Shown here piece after piece: positions 47,119 through 54,362 of a stretch of 64,000 nucleotides of DNA. Below the pieces are notes generated by a model, which was not told where the DNA came from, searched no databases, and was given only the letters and a program-made list of their open reading frames with translations. Positions within the stretch are counted from its first letter, which is position 1. Each line of letters begins with the position of its first letter. A program made the position numbers and the translations under genes. Origin of the DNA: Blastocatellia bacterium. GTDB taxonomy: Bacteria > Acidobacteriota > Blastocatellia > UBA7656. The stretch lies in assembly GCA_963765495.1 (NCBI GenBank), contig CAVXWP010000004.1:160001-224000 (forward strand). The letters run 5' to 3'.

Positions 47119-48159
47119 TTGAAAAAAGCCACCAAATTCAATGTCGTTGCGCTGACGATTATTTGCCTGATGATTCCATCATCCAGCCTGTGCTATCGCC
47201 AGACAGCAGAAGAGCAGTTGAAGATTGCGACCACGGAACTTGAAAAGCTTTTATCATCTCTGAACATGCCGGATGACGAAGCAAGGGAGCGCAAGGGTGA
47301 AATCCTCTATGCGAGAAACGCTCTTAATTCCGGCTACTTCTATCTCAGTCTTTATACTCTACAGCCCTGCTGGGTTGAATTGAAGACGCGACAATATATA
47401 AACACAAACAGCCATATCGAAGAGAAGGGCATAGAAGCTTTCGAAGCTGAATGGAAGCGGTTGGGGGCGGAGTTAGAGAAGAGAGAGAAATTGCTTCTCT
47501 CCGGCTCGCAGGATCGAGCCGCCGCAGCCGTAATGGCGCTTGAAGAAATTTCCCGCGTTCAAATTCATCCTTATCATCAGGCGGGTCGGCTTTATGGCTT
47601 GAACACCAATATTGCAAACGGCCTCTATTATCTGGGTCTGGCTCCGGCCAATCTCGACTTTGCCCTGTTCTGCCGAGGGATTCAAAAAAGCGAAACCGGC
47701 CCCGCGCTCAAACTGACTTCCCTGGAACCTGAAATTGCCCGAATAGAATCGGAGACGTTGAAGCTTTACAATCAACCCGATGCATCCAGCCGGCAACCAC
47801 AATACAACAGGGTAAACGCCACTTTGAAGATGGCTGCCGAACTCAATAAAGAGGGCCTTTACGAAGGCGCTCTACAAAAGCTTCTTGAAGCCAGGCTTTA
47901 TCTTTATCTGATCAACAAGCGCAACATTGAAAAAGAGAAAATCCAGGAACTGAGGGAGCGATCCGCAATACTAAAAAACAGATTATCTGCCAAAAGAGCC
48001 GATCACAGCATCGGCCTGTTGTTTTGGGAGATGGCGCAAAACGGGCTCGACCGGGCCGCATCAGATGAATCAAACACAGATGATCTCAAACGCGCCTCGG
48101 TGATCCTGGACAATGTGTTGCCTGAATACTTTGAGATCGTGATGGGGAAGAGACGATGA
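47119..48159 (+). CDS. Exported all-helical hypothetical protein
   Basis: 346-aa ORF with signal peptide; its stop overlaps the next ATG (ATGA). Confidence 0.8.
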   Translation: MKKATKFNVVALTIICLMIPSSSLCYRQTAEEQLKIATTELEKLLSSLNMPDDEARERKGEILYARNALNSGYFYLSLYTLQPCWVELKTRQYINTNSHIEEKGIEAFEAEWKRLGAELEKREKLLLSGSQDRAAAAVMALEEISRVQIHPYHQAGRLYGLNTNIANGLYYLGLAPANLDFALFCRGIQKSETGPALKLTSLEPEIARIESETLKLYNQPDASSRQPQYNRVNATLKMAAELNKEGLYEGALQKLLEARLYLYLINKRNIEKEKIQELRERSAILKNRLSAKRADHSIGLLFWEMAQNGLDRAASDESNTDDLKRASVILDNVLPEYFEIVMGKRR

Positions 48160-49049
48160 AACACTTCAGAATTGCCACTCTAACCACCCTCTGGCTGTTG
48201 ACTTTTTTCAGCCCCCTTGCAGCCTTACAAAGAGGCCCGGCGAGAAAGACCCCGACAGGCGACAAGAAACTGACTGTTACGCTCGTTCGCTGGCCCTATA
48301 CTTGAAGCCTCTCCGATCCGGCAAGTTTGCTGATAAAGGAAGTTGTACAGGGCTACGGGGGGCGGGTCGAGTTTGTGAGCGAAAACTGGGGGGACTCCAA
48401 ACTGGCCGACAGGTATGGAGTCAAGAAATACCCGGCCGTCTTTGTTGACGACATACTTATCGCCGGTCCTAACGATTTCGGATGGTTTGGAGCAACGGGG
48501 AAATACACTCCCTGGCGGCAGCAGGCCAACCATGAAAAATTCAAGTCGGACCTTGCGGCGATGATAGAGCTTATTCTGAAAGGCAAGAAGGCCGACGCCG
48601 CCAGGGGCAGATCATCTACAGTAGAAGTCGCTGAAATATCTCAAATCCCCCTGCTTGAGACAAGCGATCTGGATGGACATAAAATTAATTCCGCGGGTCT
48701 TGCGGGGCAGGTTGTCATAGTCGAGTTATGGGCGACATGGTGCCCCCCGTGTAGAACTATATTGAGTTGGATGGGTGAGATTAAGTCCAGATACGGGGAA
48801 AAAGTTACGATTCTGGCCGTTGCTGTGGAATCTGAGGAAGCCGATGTGCGCAAGCTGACGGCCTCCATTCAACCATCCGTAAAGATAGTTATGGGGTCGG
48901 AAGCCCTAGTTTCATCCTTTGGAACACTGGGCAGCATCCCGCGAATATTCGTCTTTGATCGTGAGGGAAAGACAGCCGGTATTTTCTATGGAGCGCCCCC
49001 GGATTTACACGAAAGAGTAACTCGCGTGATTGATGCCATTGCAAAATGA
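48156..49049 (+). CDS. Putative selenoprotein: signal peptide + thioredoxin-like (UxxS) domain + TlpA-like (WCPPC) domain
   Basis: ATG 48156 is in frame with the 48327 ORF through a single TGA (48303-48305) in VRWPYT-U-SLS; SECIS-like hairpin at 48308-48339. Confidence 0.75.
48308..48339 (+). promoter_or_regulatory. Candidate bacterial SECIS element
   Basis: CGGCA-AGTT-TGCTG apical stem, loop beginning 18 nt after UGA with GU in it; lower pairs AT/AT and CCT/AGG. Confidence 0.6.
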
Positions 49050-51248: not shown

Positions 51249-51770
51249 GTGGACGACCAAACCAATCGCCGGGAATTGATCCATATACTCAGGGCCGCTT
51301 ATTCTGGTGAGCTTGCGGCGGCACTTGCTTACCGTGGACACTGGAAATCCTTAAGAACGGGCTCAAGCGAGCGTCAAAGAATTCAACAGATCGAGCAGGA
51401 AGAGTGGGTTCATCGCGAAAGGGTTGGATTCATACTCGACACGCTTACGTCTCGGCCCCGAAAGCTGAAAGAGGGAAGGATGTGGATTATTGGCCGAGTG
51501 ATTGGCGGCCTGTGTTACGTGCTTGGCTGGTTCATGCCCATGTATTTCGCGGGCCGGCTGGAAAGCCAGAATGTAAAGGAATACGAATCGGCCGCCTTCT
51601 ATGCCGACGCGCTGGGTCTGATCGAATTTCAGAATGATCTGCTTGAGATGGCGAGGGTAGAAAAAGAGCACGAAATCTTTTTCCTGAGCACGGTCGCCAA
51701 CCACCCTCTTTTACCTCTGATGCAAAGCATCTTCGGCTGGGGAGGAGAAGCAGTAGGCAGTAGGCAGTAG
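51249..51770 (+). CDS. Ferritin-like diiron protein (Coq7/demethoxyubiquinone hydroxylase-like)
   Basis: AYSGE, EEWVH, LE...Y and EKEH ligands. Confidence 0.78.
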   Translation: MDDQTNRRELIHILRAAYSGELAAALAYRGHWKSLRTGSSERQRIQQIEQEEWVHRERVGFILDTLTSRPRKLKEGRMWIIGRVIGGLCYVLGWFMPMYFAGRLESQNVKEYESAAFYADALGLIEFQNDLLEMARVEKEHEIFFLSTVANHPLLPLMQSIFGWGGEAVGSRQ

Positions 51771-51928: not shown

Positions 51929-54277
51929 TCACTCCGCGAGCAATTCCTTGATGTTTGCTTCGAATATCTCTTTTTTGGTCACGCCGACGTGTCTGTAACG
52001 GATGCGGCCCTGCTTGTCTATTATGATGGCTACCGGCAGAGACGAATCGCCTATCTTCAGGGATTCGGCTATTTTTTCATCGCCTATGACCTGTCTGTAA
52101 TCCATCGGGTGCTCTTTCAAGAAAGGTTTCACTACTTCCGCTCCTCCTTCATCGAGAGAAACCCCGATCAGTTCCATCCCGTTTGCCTTGTGCTCGCTTT
52201 GGAGTTGATTGAACATCGGGATTTCAGAGAGACACGGCACGCACCACGTAGCCCAGAAATCCAGAACCACTACCTTGCCCCGCAATGAAGCTAGATCGAG
52301 CGCCCCTCCATCCAGAAGGTTGAGATTCAAGGCAGGCGCGGCCTCGTACGCGCCGTTTGCGCCTGCGTCTGTCATTACAGATTTATCACCGCTCGTATTT
52401 CTAGCAAGCGTTCCATCCGTTGAAGGAGATTCGACCTGCTTCATCCTTGAAAGGAACTTATCGGGCTTTTCGAATCCTTCAAGTCTCAGTTCTCTTCTCT
52501 CTTTACCTTGAGGGTCGAGAAATAGGACCGTCGGAACACCGAGTATATCGAATCGTTTCTTTGCAGCAGCCGCTTCCGGGTTAGAATCGCTTGAGGTCAA
52601 ATCGAGTTTCAGAGTCACAAATCTCTCAGCATCGTCTTTGACACTGCCGTCTGTGAAGGTCACATTATCAAGCTCCTTGCACGGAATACACCAATCGGCA
52701 AAGGTGTCTATTATGACGCCCTTCCCTTCCGCCTGCGCCGAGGCAATCGCCTGCTCGCTGTAAGGATGCCACGTAATTCCGGCTTCGGTCTGCTTTGGCA
52801 TCGCAAGGACTACGGCTATTACAGCCGCGCCTACGCCTATTGCGCGAAGCACCCACGCAAACTGTTTTGGCCTTGTGCGGGCAGGCTCCCAGAAGATCAG
52901 GTAGAGAGCCGACAGCGCAAAGAAGGCGACAAAAACATAAGTGGCATACCTGCCCATCAAAGGCATCAGAAAATAGAGCGCCATGCCGATCAGGACAAGC
53001 CCGAACACTTTGCGAACCGTCACCATCCATTCACCCGAACGAGGCAAGGAATTGAGCGCGCCCGAAAATGTCCCCAGTATCAAATAAGGCAGTCCCAACC
53101 CGAGCGCCAGCACAAAGAACATGAAGAATCCGTATACGGGATCGCCTTTCGTGCTAACGTGAAGCAGCAATCCTAGAACGAAAGGACCTATGCAGGGAGC
53201 GGCAACGATCCCCATGGTCAATCCCATGACGAGCGCGCCTATTATGCCGTTTGTTGATTGAGTGCTTCTGGTCGCAAACGTATTCAGGAAACCGGGCAAT
53301 CGGAATTCGTAAACGCCAAACATCGAGAGCGCAAGCCCTACCATCAAAGCGGCAAGCCCGATCAACACAATGGGATTTTGCAGCGCCGCGCCAAACAACC
53401 CCTTCGTCATAGAAGCGATTACGCCCAGAATCGAGTAGGTTATCGCCATCCCTACGACATACATCGAAGCCATCGTAAAGGTGCGGCTGAGACGCGGCTT
53501 TCCTCCGCTCGCGCTTTGATTGGCAAAAAAGCCTATCGTGATGGGAATGATAGGATAGACGCAGGGCGTAGCGTTGAGCGCGAGGCCCGCCAGAAAGACC
53601 GAGATCAAGGCGAAGAAGAGTCCCCGGCTCGCGATCAGGTTTGACAGGTCATCGCTCTTTTGCCCGCCTCCGAACTGTACGAGATCAGATTTTGCTTCTC
53701 CGGCATTTGTCGCCGCTGAGGTTTGCATATCGGCTTTAGAAAAAATATCAGCGTTGATCTGCTGAACTGCCTGCCCTGCGGCGAGGGTTTTTACGGGTAT
53801 CTCTATCTTGAGGTCATCAGGCGCAAGACACTGCGAGTCGTTACAGGACTGTACCGTGACGGTCGCCTTGAGCGTAGCGTCTCCCGGCTTCAGCGATTTA
53901 TCGGTTTCCACTTCGGCCACCAGTATGACCGTCCCTTCGTGGACCGCCAGAGGGGTATCGGGCGAGAACTCGAATTTTACCTGTTCGGGCGCGGGGTATT
54001 TGACCTCGCCAAATTTGAATCCGGGAGCGGGATCGAACGCCACATTTGTAGCAATTAGATAATCGAGCGTCGGCGTGTGCGCGTTTATGTGATAGCCCTT
54101 ATCAATATCGAGGGTGATTGCGACCTTGAACTTATCGCCCGGGCGCACACCGTCAGCCGAGATGTCACCCTTTGCCCGGACTACGCGACTGCTCGACTGG
54201 CCAAACACCGCAAAAACGAACGACAGCGCAAAGATGAGCGCGAGGCACGATTGGAGGATTATTCTTTTCTTATTCAT
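51929..54277 (-). CDS. dsbD: Protein-disulfide reductase DsbD fused to an extra TlpA-like domain
   Basis: Alpha QSCNDSQC, beta TPCVYP/APC, gamma WCIPC, extra FWATWCVPC. Confidence 0.9.
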   Translation of the reverse strand: MNKKRIILQSCLALIFALSFVFAVFGQSSSRVVRAKGDISADGVRPGDKFKVAITLDIDKGYHINAHTPTLDYLIATNVAFDPAPGFKFGEVKYPAPEQVKFEFSPDTPLAVHEGTVILVAEVETDKSLKPGDATLKATVTVQSCNDSQCLAPDDLKIEIPVKTLAAGQAVQQINADIFSKADMQTSAATNAGEAKSDLVQFGGGQKSDDLSNLIASRGLFFALISVFLAGLALNATPCVYPIIPITIGFFANQSASGGKPRLSRTFTMASMYVVGMAITYSILGVIASMTKGLFGAALQNPIVLIGLAALMVGLALSMFGVYEFRLPGFLNTFATRSTQSTNGIIGALVMGLTMGIVAAPCIGPFVLGLLLHVSTKGDPVYGFFMFFVLALGLGLPYLILGTFSGALNSLPRSGEWMVTVRKVFGLVLIGMALYFLMPLMGRYATYVFVAFFALSALYLIFWEPARTRPKQFAWVLRAIGVGAAVIAVVLAMPKQTEAGITWHPYSEQAIASAQAEGKGVIIDTFADWCIPCKELDNVTFTDGSVKDDAERFVTLKLDLTSSDSNPEAAAAKKRFDILGVPTVLFLDPQGKERRELRLEGFEKPDKFLSRMKQVESPSTDGTLARNTSGDKSVMTDAGANGAYEAAPALNLNLLDGGALDLASLRGKVVVLDFWATWCVPCLSEIPMFNQLQSEHKANGMELIGVSLDEGGAEVVKPFLKEHPMDYRQVIGDEKIAESLKIGDSSLPVAIIIDKQGRIRYRHVGVTKKEIFEANIKELLAE

Positions 54278-54362
54278 AGGAGCCTTCTGTGAGTCGAAGC
54301 GGCAGGGTCGAATTTCAAAGCCTGGTAATTTCAAAGCCTGGTATCGAGCCGCTCGTCTTCGA

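Follow-up and report, generated by a model that had tools for sequence, protein, structure and literature searches.

Does the in-frame TGA at positions 48303-48305 of a 64,000-nucleotide (nt) stretch from a soil acidobacterium (Blastocatellia bacterium, contig CAVXWP010000004.1; genome of 7.3 Mb, 97.9% complete) end a short open reading frame (ORF), or is it translated as selenocysteine (Sec)? The whole of this stretch is called the window below. An original prediction, made from the letters of the window, held that the codon belongs to a hidden exported selenoprotein in which a UxxS thioredoxin domain is fused to a TlpA domain. Our analysis puts the probability of Sec decoding of UGA 48303-48305, taken jointly with the two-domain architecture, at about 0.9. 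Judged by its conservation in relatives, the locus almost certainly holds a real selenoprotein gene, and one of a well-known kind, i.e., a thioredoxin-fold selenoprotein with a selenocysteine insertion sequence (SECIS) inside its ORF; it stands out by using Sec almost obligately and by having a fused partner domain. The gene is defined by the following features:

48156..49049, forward strand: predicted selenoprotein gene, 297 residues plus stop, with a single Sec codon
48303..48305, forward strand: predicted Sec codon UGA, residue 50
48156..48224, forward strand: probable signal peptide, residues 1-23

The frame reads MKHFRIATLTTLWLLTFFSPLAA...TVTLVRWPYT-TGA(48303-48305)-SLSDPASLLIKE... and is stop-free onward to the TGA at 49047-49049. 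Both the read-through frame of 297 amino acids (aa), which joins the ORF starting at 48327 and has its only in-frame TGA at 48303-48305, and the overlap of its start with an upstream stop had been part of the prediction and are borne out by the sequence: ATG 48156 shares the letters ATGA with the TGA stop (48157-48159) of the upstream ORF 47119-48159. Mechanical ORF calling splits the gene into a 49-aa and a 240-aa ORF, the latter (the gene-caller product P0002) beginning at TTG 48327, i.e., within the loop of the hairpin described below. The motif around the Sec codon is U50-S-L-S53, set in the conserved peptide TVTLVRWPYT-U-SLSDPASLL. Export of the protein is probable on the strength of a signal peptide called by eye (a basic N-terminus and a hydrophobic stretch running to LAA), and a comparable hydrophobic N-terminal segment was found in all nine aligned orthologs from the same bacterial family.

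Relatives were collected by six-frame searches reading through stops, with retrieval peptide patterns from which the Sec codon itself was excluded. We found a full-length ortholog (E<1e-90) in nine genomes of the same bacterial family; every one of these copies contains exactly one TGA, always at the same aligned codon. Two more family genomes possess a partial copy at a contig end (G020) and a copy split between frames (G012). Genomes representing all species added loci labelled as Pyrinomonadaceae, Blastocatellia, Terriglobia (Candidatus Angelobacter), Thermoanaerobaculia, Vicinamibacteria, Eisenbacteria, Planctomycetota and Armatimonadota. Among the 45 distinct genome-derived contexts covering the codon (tblastn), TGA is found in 44 and TGC in one, the Armatimonadota locus L074; all 52 distinct contexts from metagenome contigs, none identical to a genome context, carry TGA. 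When both sets are pooled, the codon is TGA in 96 of 97 contexts, TGC in one and TGG in none, and TGA together with both of its flanks is kept in no fewer than six groups at phylum or class level. A profile search for further Cys forms in 1.84 billion representative proteins brought the proteins with C-x-x-S at the Sec site to L074/P0127 (P0127 matches L074), P0171, P0195, P0210 and P0230. The expectation of the original prediction that relatives would show TGA or Cys at the aligned codon, and that the sequence upstream of it would be conserved, was thus confirmed on both counts: at codons -11 to -1 of the 44 genome-derived Sec sequences the amino acids are kept and the four-fold sites vary freely, with an entropy of 1.2-1.7 bits. 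The residue three positions past Sec is mostly Ser, with Cys in several lineages (U-TIC, U-HLC/HIC, U-NLC), and such UxxC lineages are, from their sequence, what would be expected of a redox motif derived from CxxC.

A few loci are altered at or near this region. The split copy of G012 (L032, G012:C3:249113-249936) switches frame at about residue 175, owing either to a frameshift or to an error of assembly, and its Sec TGA is intact. In a Myxococcaceae metagenome-assembled genome (MAG; L059:2950-3010) and a near-identical metagenome contig (L131:550-610), the WPYT-U-xxSDP segment is deleted with a frameshift and the GCAAGTTTGC hairpin remnant is retained, which, by the sequence, suggests that the Sec site is decaying in one lineage. 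A Thermoanaerobaculia MAG contig bears tandem selenoprotein copies (L047:148-195 and L047:1934-1981), each with its own TGA and a SECIS with a GGUC loop. In turn, the metagenome contig L173 has a one-base deletion within the SECIS hairpin (AGTTGCTGG) that shifts the frame, and represents either a sequencing error or a pseudogene.

The second line of evidence is a hairpin located just past the codon:

48319..48332, forward strand: predicted SECIS apical hairpin CGGCA-AGUU-UGCUG

It is composed of CGGCA (48319-48323), the loop AGTT (48324-48327) and TGCTG (48328-48332), and exactly 18 nt (48306-48323) lie between the UGA and the loop. The family consensus is C(G/A)GCA-[AGUU or GGUC]-UGCUG. We observed that codons past the TGA are frozen at synonymous sites: Ala+6 is GCA in 44/44 sequences, Ser+7 is AGT in 33/33, Leu+9 is CTG in 44/44, and Pro+5 is encoded only by CCG or CCA. 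The frozen nucleotides build the helix C-C-R-G-C-A / U-G-C-U-G-G, paired in 95.8% of cells as against at most 50% in slid controls. Over 95 aligned rows the loop is AGUU in 63, GGUC in 29, GGUU in two and GGGA in one; the loop-closing pair 22-25 covaries (A-U in 63, G-C in 29, G-U in two) and pair 18-29 is divided between G-U (48) and A-U (47). In the GGUC rows an amino-acid change from Ser to Gly is coupled to a synonymous change of Leu from TTG to CTG. The Cys-form locus departs from the others at every one of these synonymous sites and no longer forms the hairpin (-0.1 kcal/mol); there, the stretch from the TGA to the TTG is conserved as protein with different nucleotides. The predicted role of this hairpin as a SECIS with its loop 18 nt past the UGA is supported by conservation, covariation and freezing at synonymous sites, and the GCA-[A/G]GU[U/C]-UGC hairpin at +18 offers a clean natural example of covariation inside coding sequence.

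The prototype of the bacterial SECIS (bSECIS) is that of Escherichia coli fdhF, in which loop nucleotides G23/U24 are essential. Among bacterial SECIS elements, the family element is very short, has an upper stem and loop that are near-invariant across phyla, and matches no Rfam model. Features that it shares with the Zhang and Gladyshev consensus for bSECIS elements (summary in PMC13188914) are the position inside the ORF, a small loop with G-U at positions 2-3, 5-6 bp in the upper stem and the 18-nt spacing. Its spacing and loop type also match those of the fdhA gene of its own genome. The bSECIS model given in the same source has a loop of 3-9 nt, an upper stem of 4-16 bp, a G in the first two loop positions, a UGA-to-loop distance of 16-37 nt and a minimum free energy (MFE) of -7.5 kcal/mol or lower (PMC13188914). 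The window element falls within every one of these limits, with a 4-nt loop that has G and U as its second and third nucleotides, a 5-bp stem, a distance of 18 nt and an MFE of -8.7 kcal/mol for the UGA plus 45 nt, hairpin included. A naive genome-wide scan for open frames with a TGA, a 5-bp hairpin and an NGUN loop returned 106 candidates, mostly noise, and was not used.

As for the machinery, the genome of the window encodes the complete set that the prediction called for, with all three proteins above curated cut-offs: selA (566 bits, cut-off 268), selB (374 bits, cut-off 242) and selD (386 bits, cut-off 125), all free of internal stops, and a tRNA-SeC (selC) with the anticodon TCA. Its fdhA (formate dehydrogenase alpha subunit, G000:C10:125141) has one in-frame TGA, in the context ARI-U-HSASVPG, followed by the SECIS GGUGCCC-GGUCU-GGGCAUC, the loop GGUCU of which begins 18 nt past its UGA. 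Elsewhere in the genome TGA serves as an ordinary stop and terminates both the selenoprotein gene and the gene upstream of it. A check for selA in five other gene-bearing genomes was positive in four.

Several observations weigh against Sec decoding and have to be set beside this evidence. The window hairpin taken alone is weak, with five base pairs (one of them G-U) and -5.4 kcal/mol, and the 71-nt fold is no more stable than shuffled sequences (z = 0.07); therefore, stability alone would not support it, and it stands out from chance because relatives conserve the TGA and show no variation in the hairpin nucleotides at synonymous positions. Rfam at the gathering threshold found no SECIS or other family in the whole window, and at E<=10 it returned only a chance snoRNA match (E 3.6) on 48250-48420. 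One database protein, P0117, has W at the Sec position in its protein record, which may or may not reflect a TGA translated with code table 4; no close DNA relative of it was found among all retrieved loci (best 54% identity). P0254 (131 aa), a stand-alone homolog of the N-terminal domain, has Asp at the site (VRFPLPD-ALSD) and may be a non-redox offshoot of that domain family. The co-occurrence of gene and machinery is non-discriminating, since selA is present in 51 of 52 genomes of the bacterial family and the selenoprotein gene in only about 11. The Sec-form MAG of L045, possibly incomplete, has no selA above the cut-off. Among sequencing runs, a search for those holding the sequence listed one DNA run from a soil metagenome and none of RNA. 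The Cys-form genome carries selA, so its use of Cys is not explained by loss of the machinery.

The Sec codon is placed in the first of two predicted domains:

48261..48605, forward strand: N-terminal divergent thioredoxin-fold domain (predicted), residues ~36-150, with U50-S-L-S53
48633..49046, forward strand: C-terminal TlpA/ResA-like thioredoxin-fold domain, active site W195-C196-P-P-C199 (Cys codons 48741-48743 and 48750-48752)

Modelled alone, the N-terminal domain (N-domain) reaches a predicted local distance difference test score (pLDDT) of 87 and a predicted template modelling score (pTM) of 0.82, with the topology b-a-b-a-b-b-a (E4-10, H18-30, E36-42, H47-51, E59-62, E65-68, H88-106; Sec is domain residue 15). 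Its best structural matches are thioredoxins and protein disulfide isomerase (PDI) domains (Foldseek probability 1.0, E~1e-3; VIA Z 8-9.7), and on this model the N-domain is predicted to adopt the thioredoxin fold. Sec sits in the loop that connects strand 1 to helix 1, just before the helix, which agrees with the redox position of a thioredoxin domain that had been claimed for the TGA. The cis-Pro loop before strand 3 is also recognizable: Y92-P93 is invariant in the nine family orthologs and P93 is present in 21/21 N-domain rows. At the sequence level the domain is highly divergent. None of 21 members reaches a gathering score in Pfam (Glutaredoxin at E 0.0053 in 2/21, Thioredoxin_3 at E 0.049 or weaker in 4/21), NCBIfam (release 20) gives nothing significant for the N-domain, and a profile of the domain finds thioredoxin in the PDB at E 0.065.

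The C-terminal domain (C-domain), in turn, scores 43.0, 43.3 and 41.7 bits with the Pfam models Redoxin, AhpC-TSA and Thioredoxin (gathering cut-offs 26.6, 26 and 23.5), and Foldseek ranks thiol:disulfide interchange proteins, ResA, DsbE and CcmG highest among its structural matches (E 1e-11 to 1e-8; TM by target 0.75-0.86). WCPPC is invariant in the nine family orthologs, save for the first P. The scores against NCBIfam stay below the cut-offs (TlpA 46 vs 230, ResA 59 vs 170, DsbE 23 vs 123 bits); therefore, the C-domain is no ortholog of TlpA, ResA or DsbE. Of the predicted TlpA domain, the TlpA/ResA-like character and the WCPPC site thus stand, and membership in the TlpA equivalog group does not. 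The full-length model has a pLDDT of 76.7.

The way in which databases hold this family reflects the stop codon. When the read-through product was compared with 5.8 billion proteins, 120 relatives were among the matches listed, 119 of which cover only 75-83% of the query and, given that coverage, begin after the TGA; the exception is P0117, with 88%. The truncation by gene callers that had been foreseen is therefore seen in P0002 and in the other entries alike, which are without signal peptide, first strand and catalytic residue. NCBI-sourced names of the truncated forms are "TlpA disulfide reductase family protein" and, among the entries, also "thiol-disulfide isomerase". A model of the N-domain combined with the conserved SECIS word would correct at least 96 TGA-bearing loci, and probably many more. 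Some relatives have an extra C-terminal extension of ~230-300 aa after the TlpA-like domain (P0006, P0009, P0013 and P0014, 473-477 aa; P0123, P0151 and P0157, 543-550 aa); on the extensions of P0013, P0123, P0151 and P0157, Pfam and NCBIfam recognized nothing beyond the thioredoxin-type domain.

We found that the gene directly upstream is, by its sequence context, part of the same system:

47119..48159, forward strand: partner gene, predicted 346-aa exported protein, with its TGA stop overlapping the selenoprotein ATG

The original prediction had noted the overlap and missed the partnership: this gene seems to belong to the same module, and in most lineages it forms one fused gene with the selenoprotein. 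Of 44 related loci, 40 have a homolog of it immediately upstream. An uninterrupted frame of at least 295 codons leads up to the Sec codon in 30/45 contexts (fused form), and 13/45, including the window, are split, with a separate signal peptide; the remaining contexts are one intermediate (197 open codons) and one cut by a contig end. In the fused form, the partner, Sec and CPPC domains make up one protein of ~600 aa, as in the Cys-form P0127 (599 aa); P0171 and P0230 are likewise fused Cys-form proteins. No family in Pfam or NCBIfam matches the partner protein, and its alignment shows no conserved Cys, His or Met cluster, the invariant columns being G, L, W, A, Y, D, S and P. In the ESM Atlas the partner matched acidobacterial clusters only, some auto-named "MotC family" without Pfam support, and fell below informative recognition. 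Gene fusion thus gives this ~340-aa partner family its first functional handle.

What would such a protein do? SelB and tRNA-Sec, recruited by the in-ORF SECIS, would decode UGA 48303-48305 as Sec, giving a mature protein composed of the Sec50 N-domain (UxxS; UxxC in some relatives) and the ResA/TlpA-like W-C196-P-P-C199 domain. Outside the cytoplasm, the Sec50 selenolate would attack an oxidised substrate (a disulfide, sulfenate or peroxide), the tethered CPPC domain would resolve the Se-S or Se-OH intermediate, and a DsbD/CcdA-type membrane transporter would re-reduce the CPPC domain; the partner domain would probably provide the substrate or the specificity. To this relay as a whole we give an even chance of being right. 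A candidate for the transporter is found in the window:

51929..54334, reverse strand: DsbD-type membrane electron transporter with a TlpA-like domain, 800 aa (NCBIfam DsbD subfamily, 337 bits, cut-off 330)

This DsbD-TlpA fusion lies 2.9 kb from the selenoprotein gene and is a possible reductant supply. It scores 475 bits against the TsoB rhodanese/DsbD selenoprotein model, below the cut-off of 805, and has no in-frame stop. Two points speak against the relay: within +-3 kb of the gene in other loci we found no DsbD membrane part, only TlpA-domain cross-hits, and the full model leaves the placement of the domains relative to each other uncertain (pTM 0.57). Between an alpha/beta hydrolase gene and the DsbD fusion, positions 51249-51770 (forward strand) encode a 173-aa ferritin-like protein (COQ7 at E 2e-7, rubrerythrin below the cut-off).

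Of the alternatives, the one that survives best leaves the selenoprotein as it is and changes its chemistry: the protein would act as a peroxidase in the manner of glutathione peroxidase (GPx, UxxT) or peroxiredoxin-like (Prx-like, UxxS) enzymes, recycled by the CPPC domain, and not as a disulfide reductase or isomerase. Most members do have a single nucleophile in U-x-x-S, UxxT and UxxS motifs are listed for GPx-like and Prx-like selenoproteins (PMC13188914), and near-obligate Sec (96/97) would fit a reaction in which Sec resists over-oxidation. Against it, the N-domain matches neither GPx nor Prx in sequence or structure, its best matches being plain thioredoxins and PDI domains, and the UxxC found in some lineages is typical of dithiol-type oxidoreductases. 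We consider a peroxidase of this kind unlikely.

Quite improbable is a non-catalytic Sec domain whose role would be to bind metals or metalloids (Cu, Hg, As or Se species), the partner then acting as a chaperone or sensor in the periplasm. TlpA-type proteins serve in the maturation of copper centres and cytochromes, the function of the partner domain is unassigned, and P0013 has a weak SCO1/SenC match (18.6 bits, cut-off 22.8). However, a lone selenol with Ser makes a poor chelator, the partner domain lacks the Cys, His or Met cluster mentioned above, and no metal-handling genes adjoin the selenoprotein gene in the window.

Very improbable, in turn, is that the TGA is a true stop, with a 49-aa leader ORF followed by an independent TlpA-like gene of 240 aa from TTG 48327, or that the locus is a recent pseudogene. 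Gene callers agree with such a reading (P0002 and 118 other truncated entries), and the deletion of the Sec-site segment with a frameshift in L059 and L131 means that decay does occur. However, a stop would not account for a TGA conserved with its flanks in 96/97 contexts of at least six phylum- or class-level groups, for Cys forms that read straight through, or for the stretch from TGA to TTG that stays conserved as protein in the Cys-form locus despite differing nucleotides; moreover, a protein started at 48327 would be without an export signal and without the first strand of the N-domain. The least probable of all is decoding of the UGA as Trp or some other standard amino acid, through an alternative code or near-cognate suppression, for which the W of P0117 can be cited and against which stand the normal use of TGA as a stop in this genome, selA, selB and selD without internal stops, the lack of TGG in 97 DNA contexts, where TGC is the only sense codon, and a conserved SelB-type hairpin spaced as in the genome's own fdhA. 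Sec decoding thus remains the reading that we follow below.

Is the family new? A May 2026 review (PMC13188914) tabulates 119 prokaryotic selenoprotein families, and its Table 1 has no entry with this architecture or motif, its supplements being a place where a generic name could stand. Literature searches found no prior description of the family, which supplementary tables could likewise list generically. In the excerpted text of the deep-Sep paper (PMC12013277), no new family came from its one acidobacterial test genome. Of the catalogued NCBIfam selenoprotein families considered (WAxxUGC_long, TsoX, TsoB, PDO_seleno_TRX and the DF family), matches were on the C-domain only and far below the cut-offs (WAxxUGC_long 27 vs 300, TsoX 20 vs 52 bits), and catalogued selenoprotein models gave the Cys-form relatives 11.6 vs 185 and 12.1 vs 70 bits. 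The NCBIfam "DF family (seleno)protein" match (12 bits) was rejected as unrelated, "DF" naming an organism according to PMC12013277. The family is thus apparently uncatalogued and would add to the selenoproteome of abundant soil phyla.

Comparison with known systems shows where it differs. Like the TlpA/Redoxin-type selenoprotein families in Table 1 of PMC13188914, it has a thioredoxin fold, Sec before the first helix, an in-ORF SECIS and an extracytoplasmic thiol-disulfide oxidoreductase context. In those families, however, Sec replaces a Cys of the domain's own CxxC (as given in that table), whereas here the TlpA-like domain keeps its WCPPC, Sec lies in a separate, preceding thioredoxin-like domain and the motif is mostly UxxS. 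With the Prx-like (cd02970, UxxS) and GPx-like (UxxT) selenoproteins listed in PMC13188914 it shares a single selenol, Ser or Thr three residues on and a thioredoxin-type fold; unlike them, it has an N-domain with no sequence or structural affinity to theirs and an architecture of two or, with the partner, three domains. The exported reductases TlpA/ResA/CcmG (DsbE) resemble the C-domain in fold, CxxC position and Pfam membership, and dependence on a DsbD/CcdA-type reductant is probably shared; in contrast to them, the C-domain is sub-cut-off and tethered to a Sec domain. Neisseria PilB (Trx-MsrA-MsrB) is a multidomain periplasmic reductase in which a DsbD-fed TlpA-like domain is fused to the catalytic domain that it re-reduces. 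In the present family the catalytic part would instead be a Sec thioredoxin-like domain with a helical partner domain, and no Msr domains are present.

We tentatively go one step further and propose that partner, Sec-thioredoxin and CPPC domains could together form a redox machine of soil bacteria (Acidobacteriota, Eisenbacteria, Planctomycetota) that works outside the cytoplasm, depends on selenium and has so far gone unrecognised, a broader proposal that we hold to be possible but less likely than not. Selenium would be effectively required because Sec is used at 96/97 loci, an unusual strictness for a thioredoxin-fold family. If the ~340-aa domain handles the substrate, the module would therefore define a new periplasmic pathway and not a variant of thioredoxin, and, if the proposal is true, it may be one reason why soil lineages keep the Sec trait.

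A further set of frames was noticed in the same bacterial family. TlpA-like domains at G050:C160:8095-8505, G052:C307:2062-2469, G051:C250:4983-5390, G002:C145:2191-2544 and G009:C24:48625-48939 lie in frames of ~700-718 aa with one TGA each, and these frames may represent a second, different TlpA-linked selenoprotein family.

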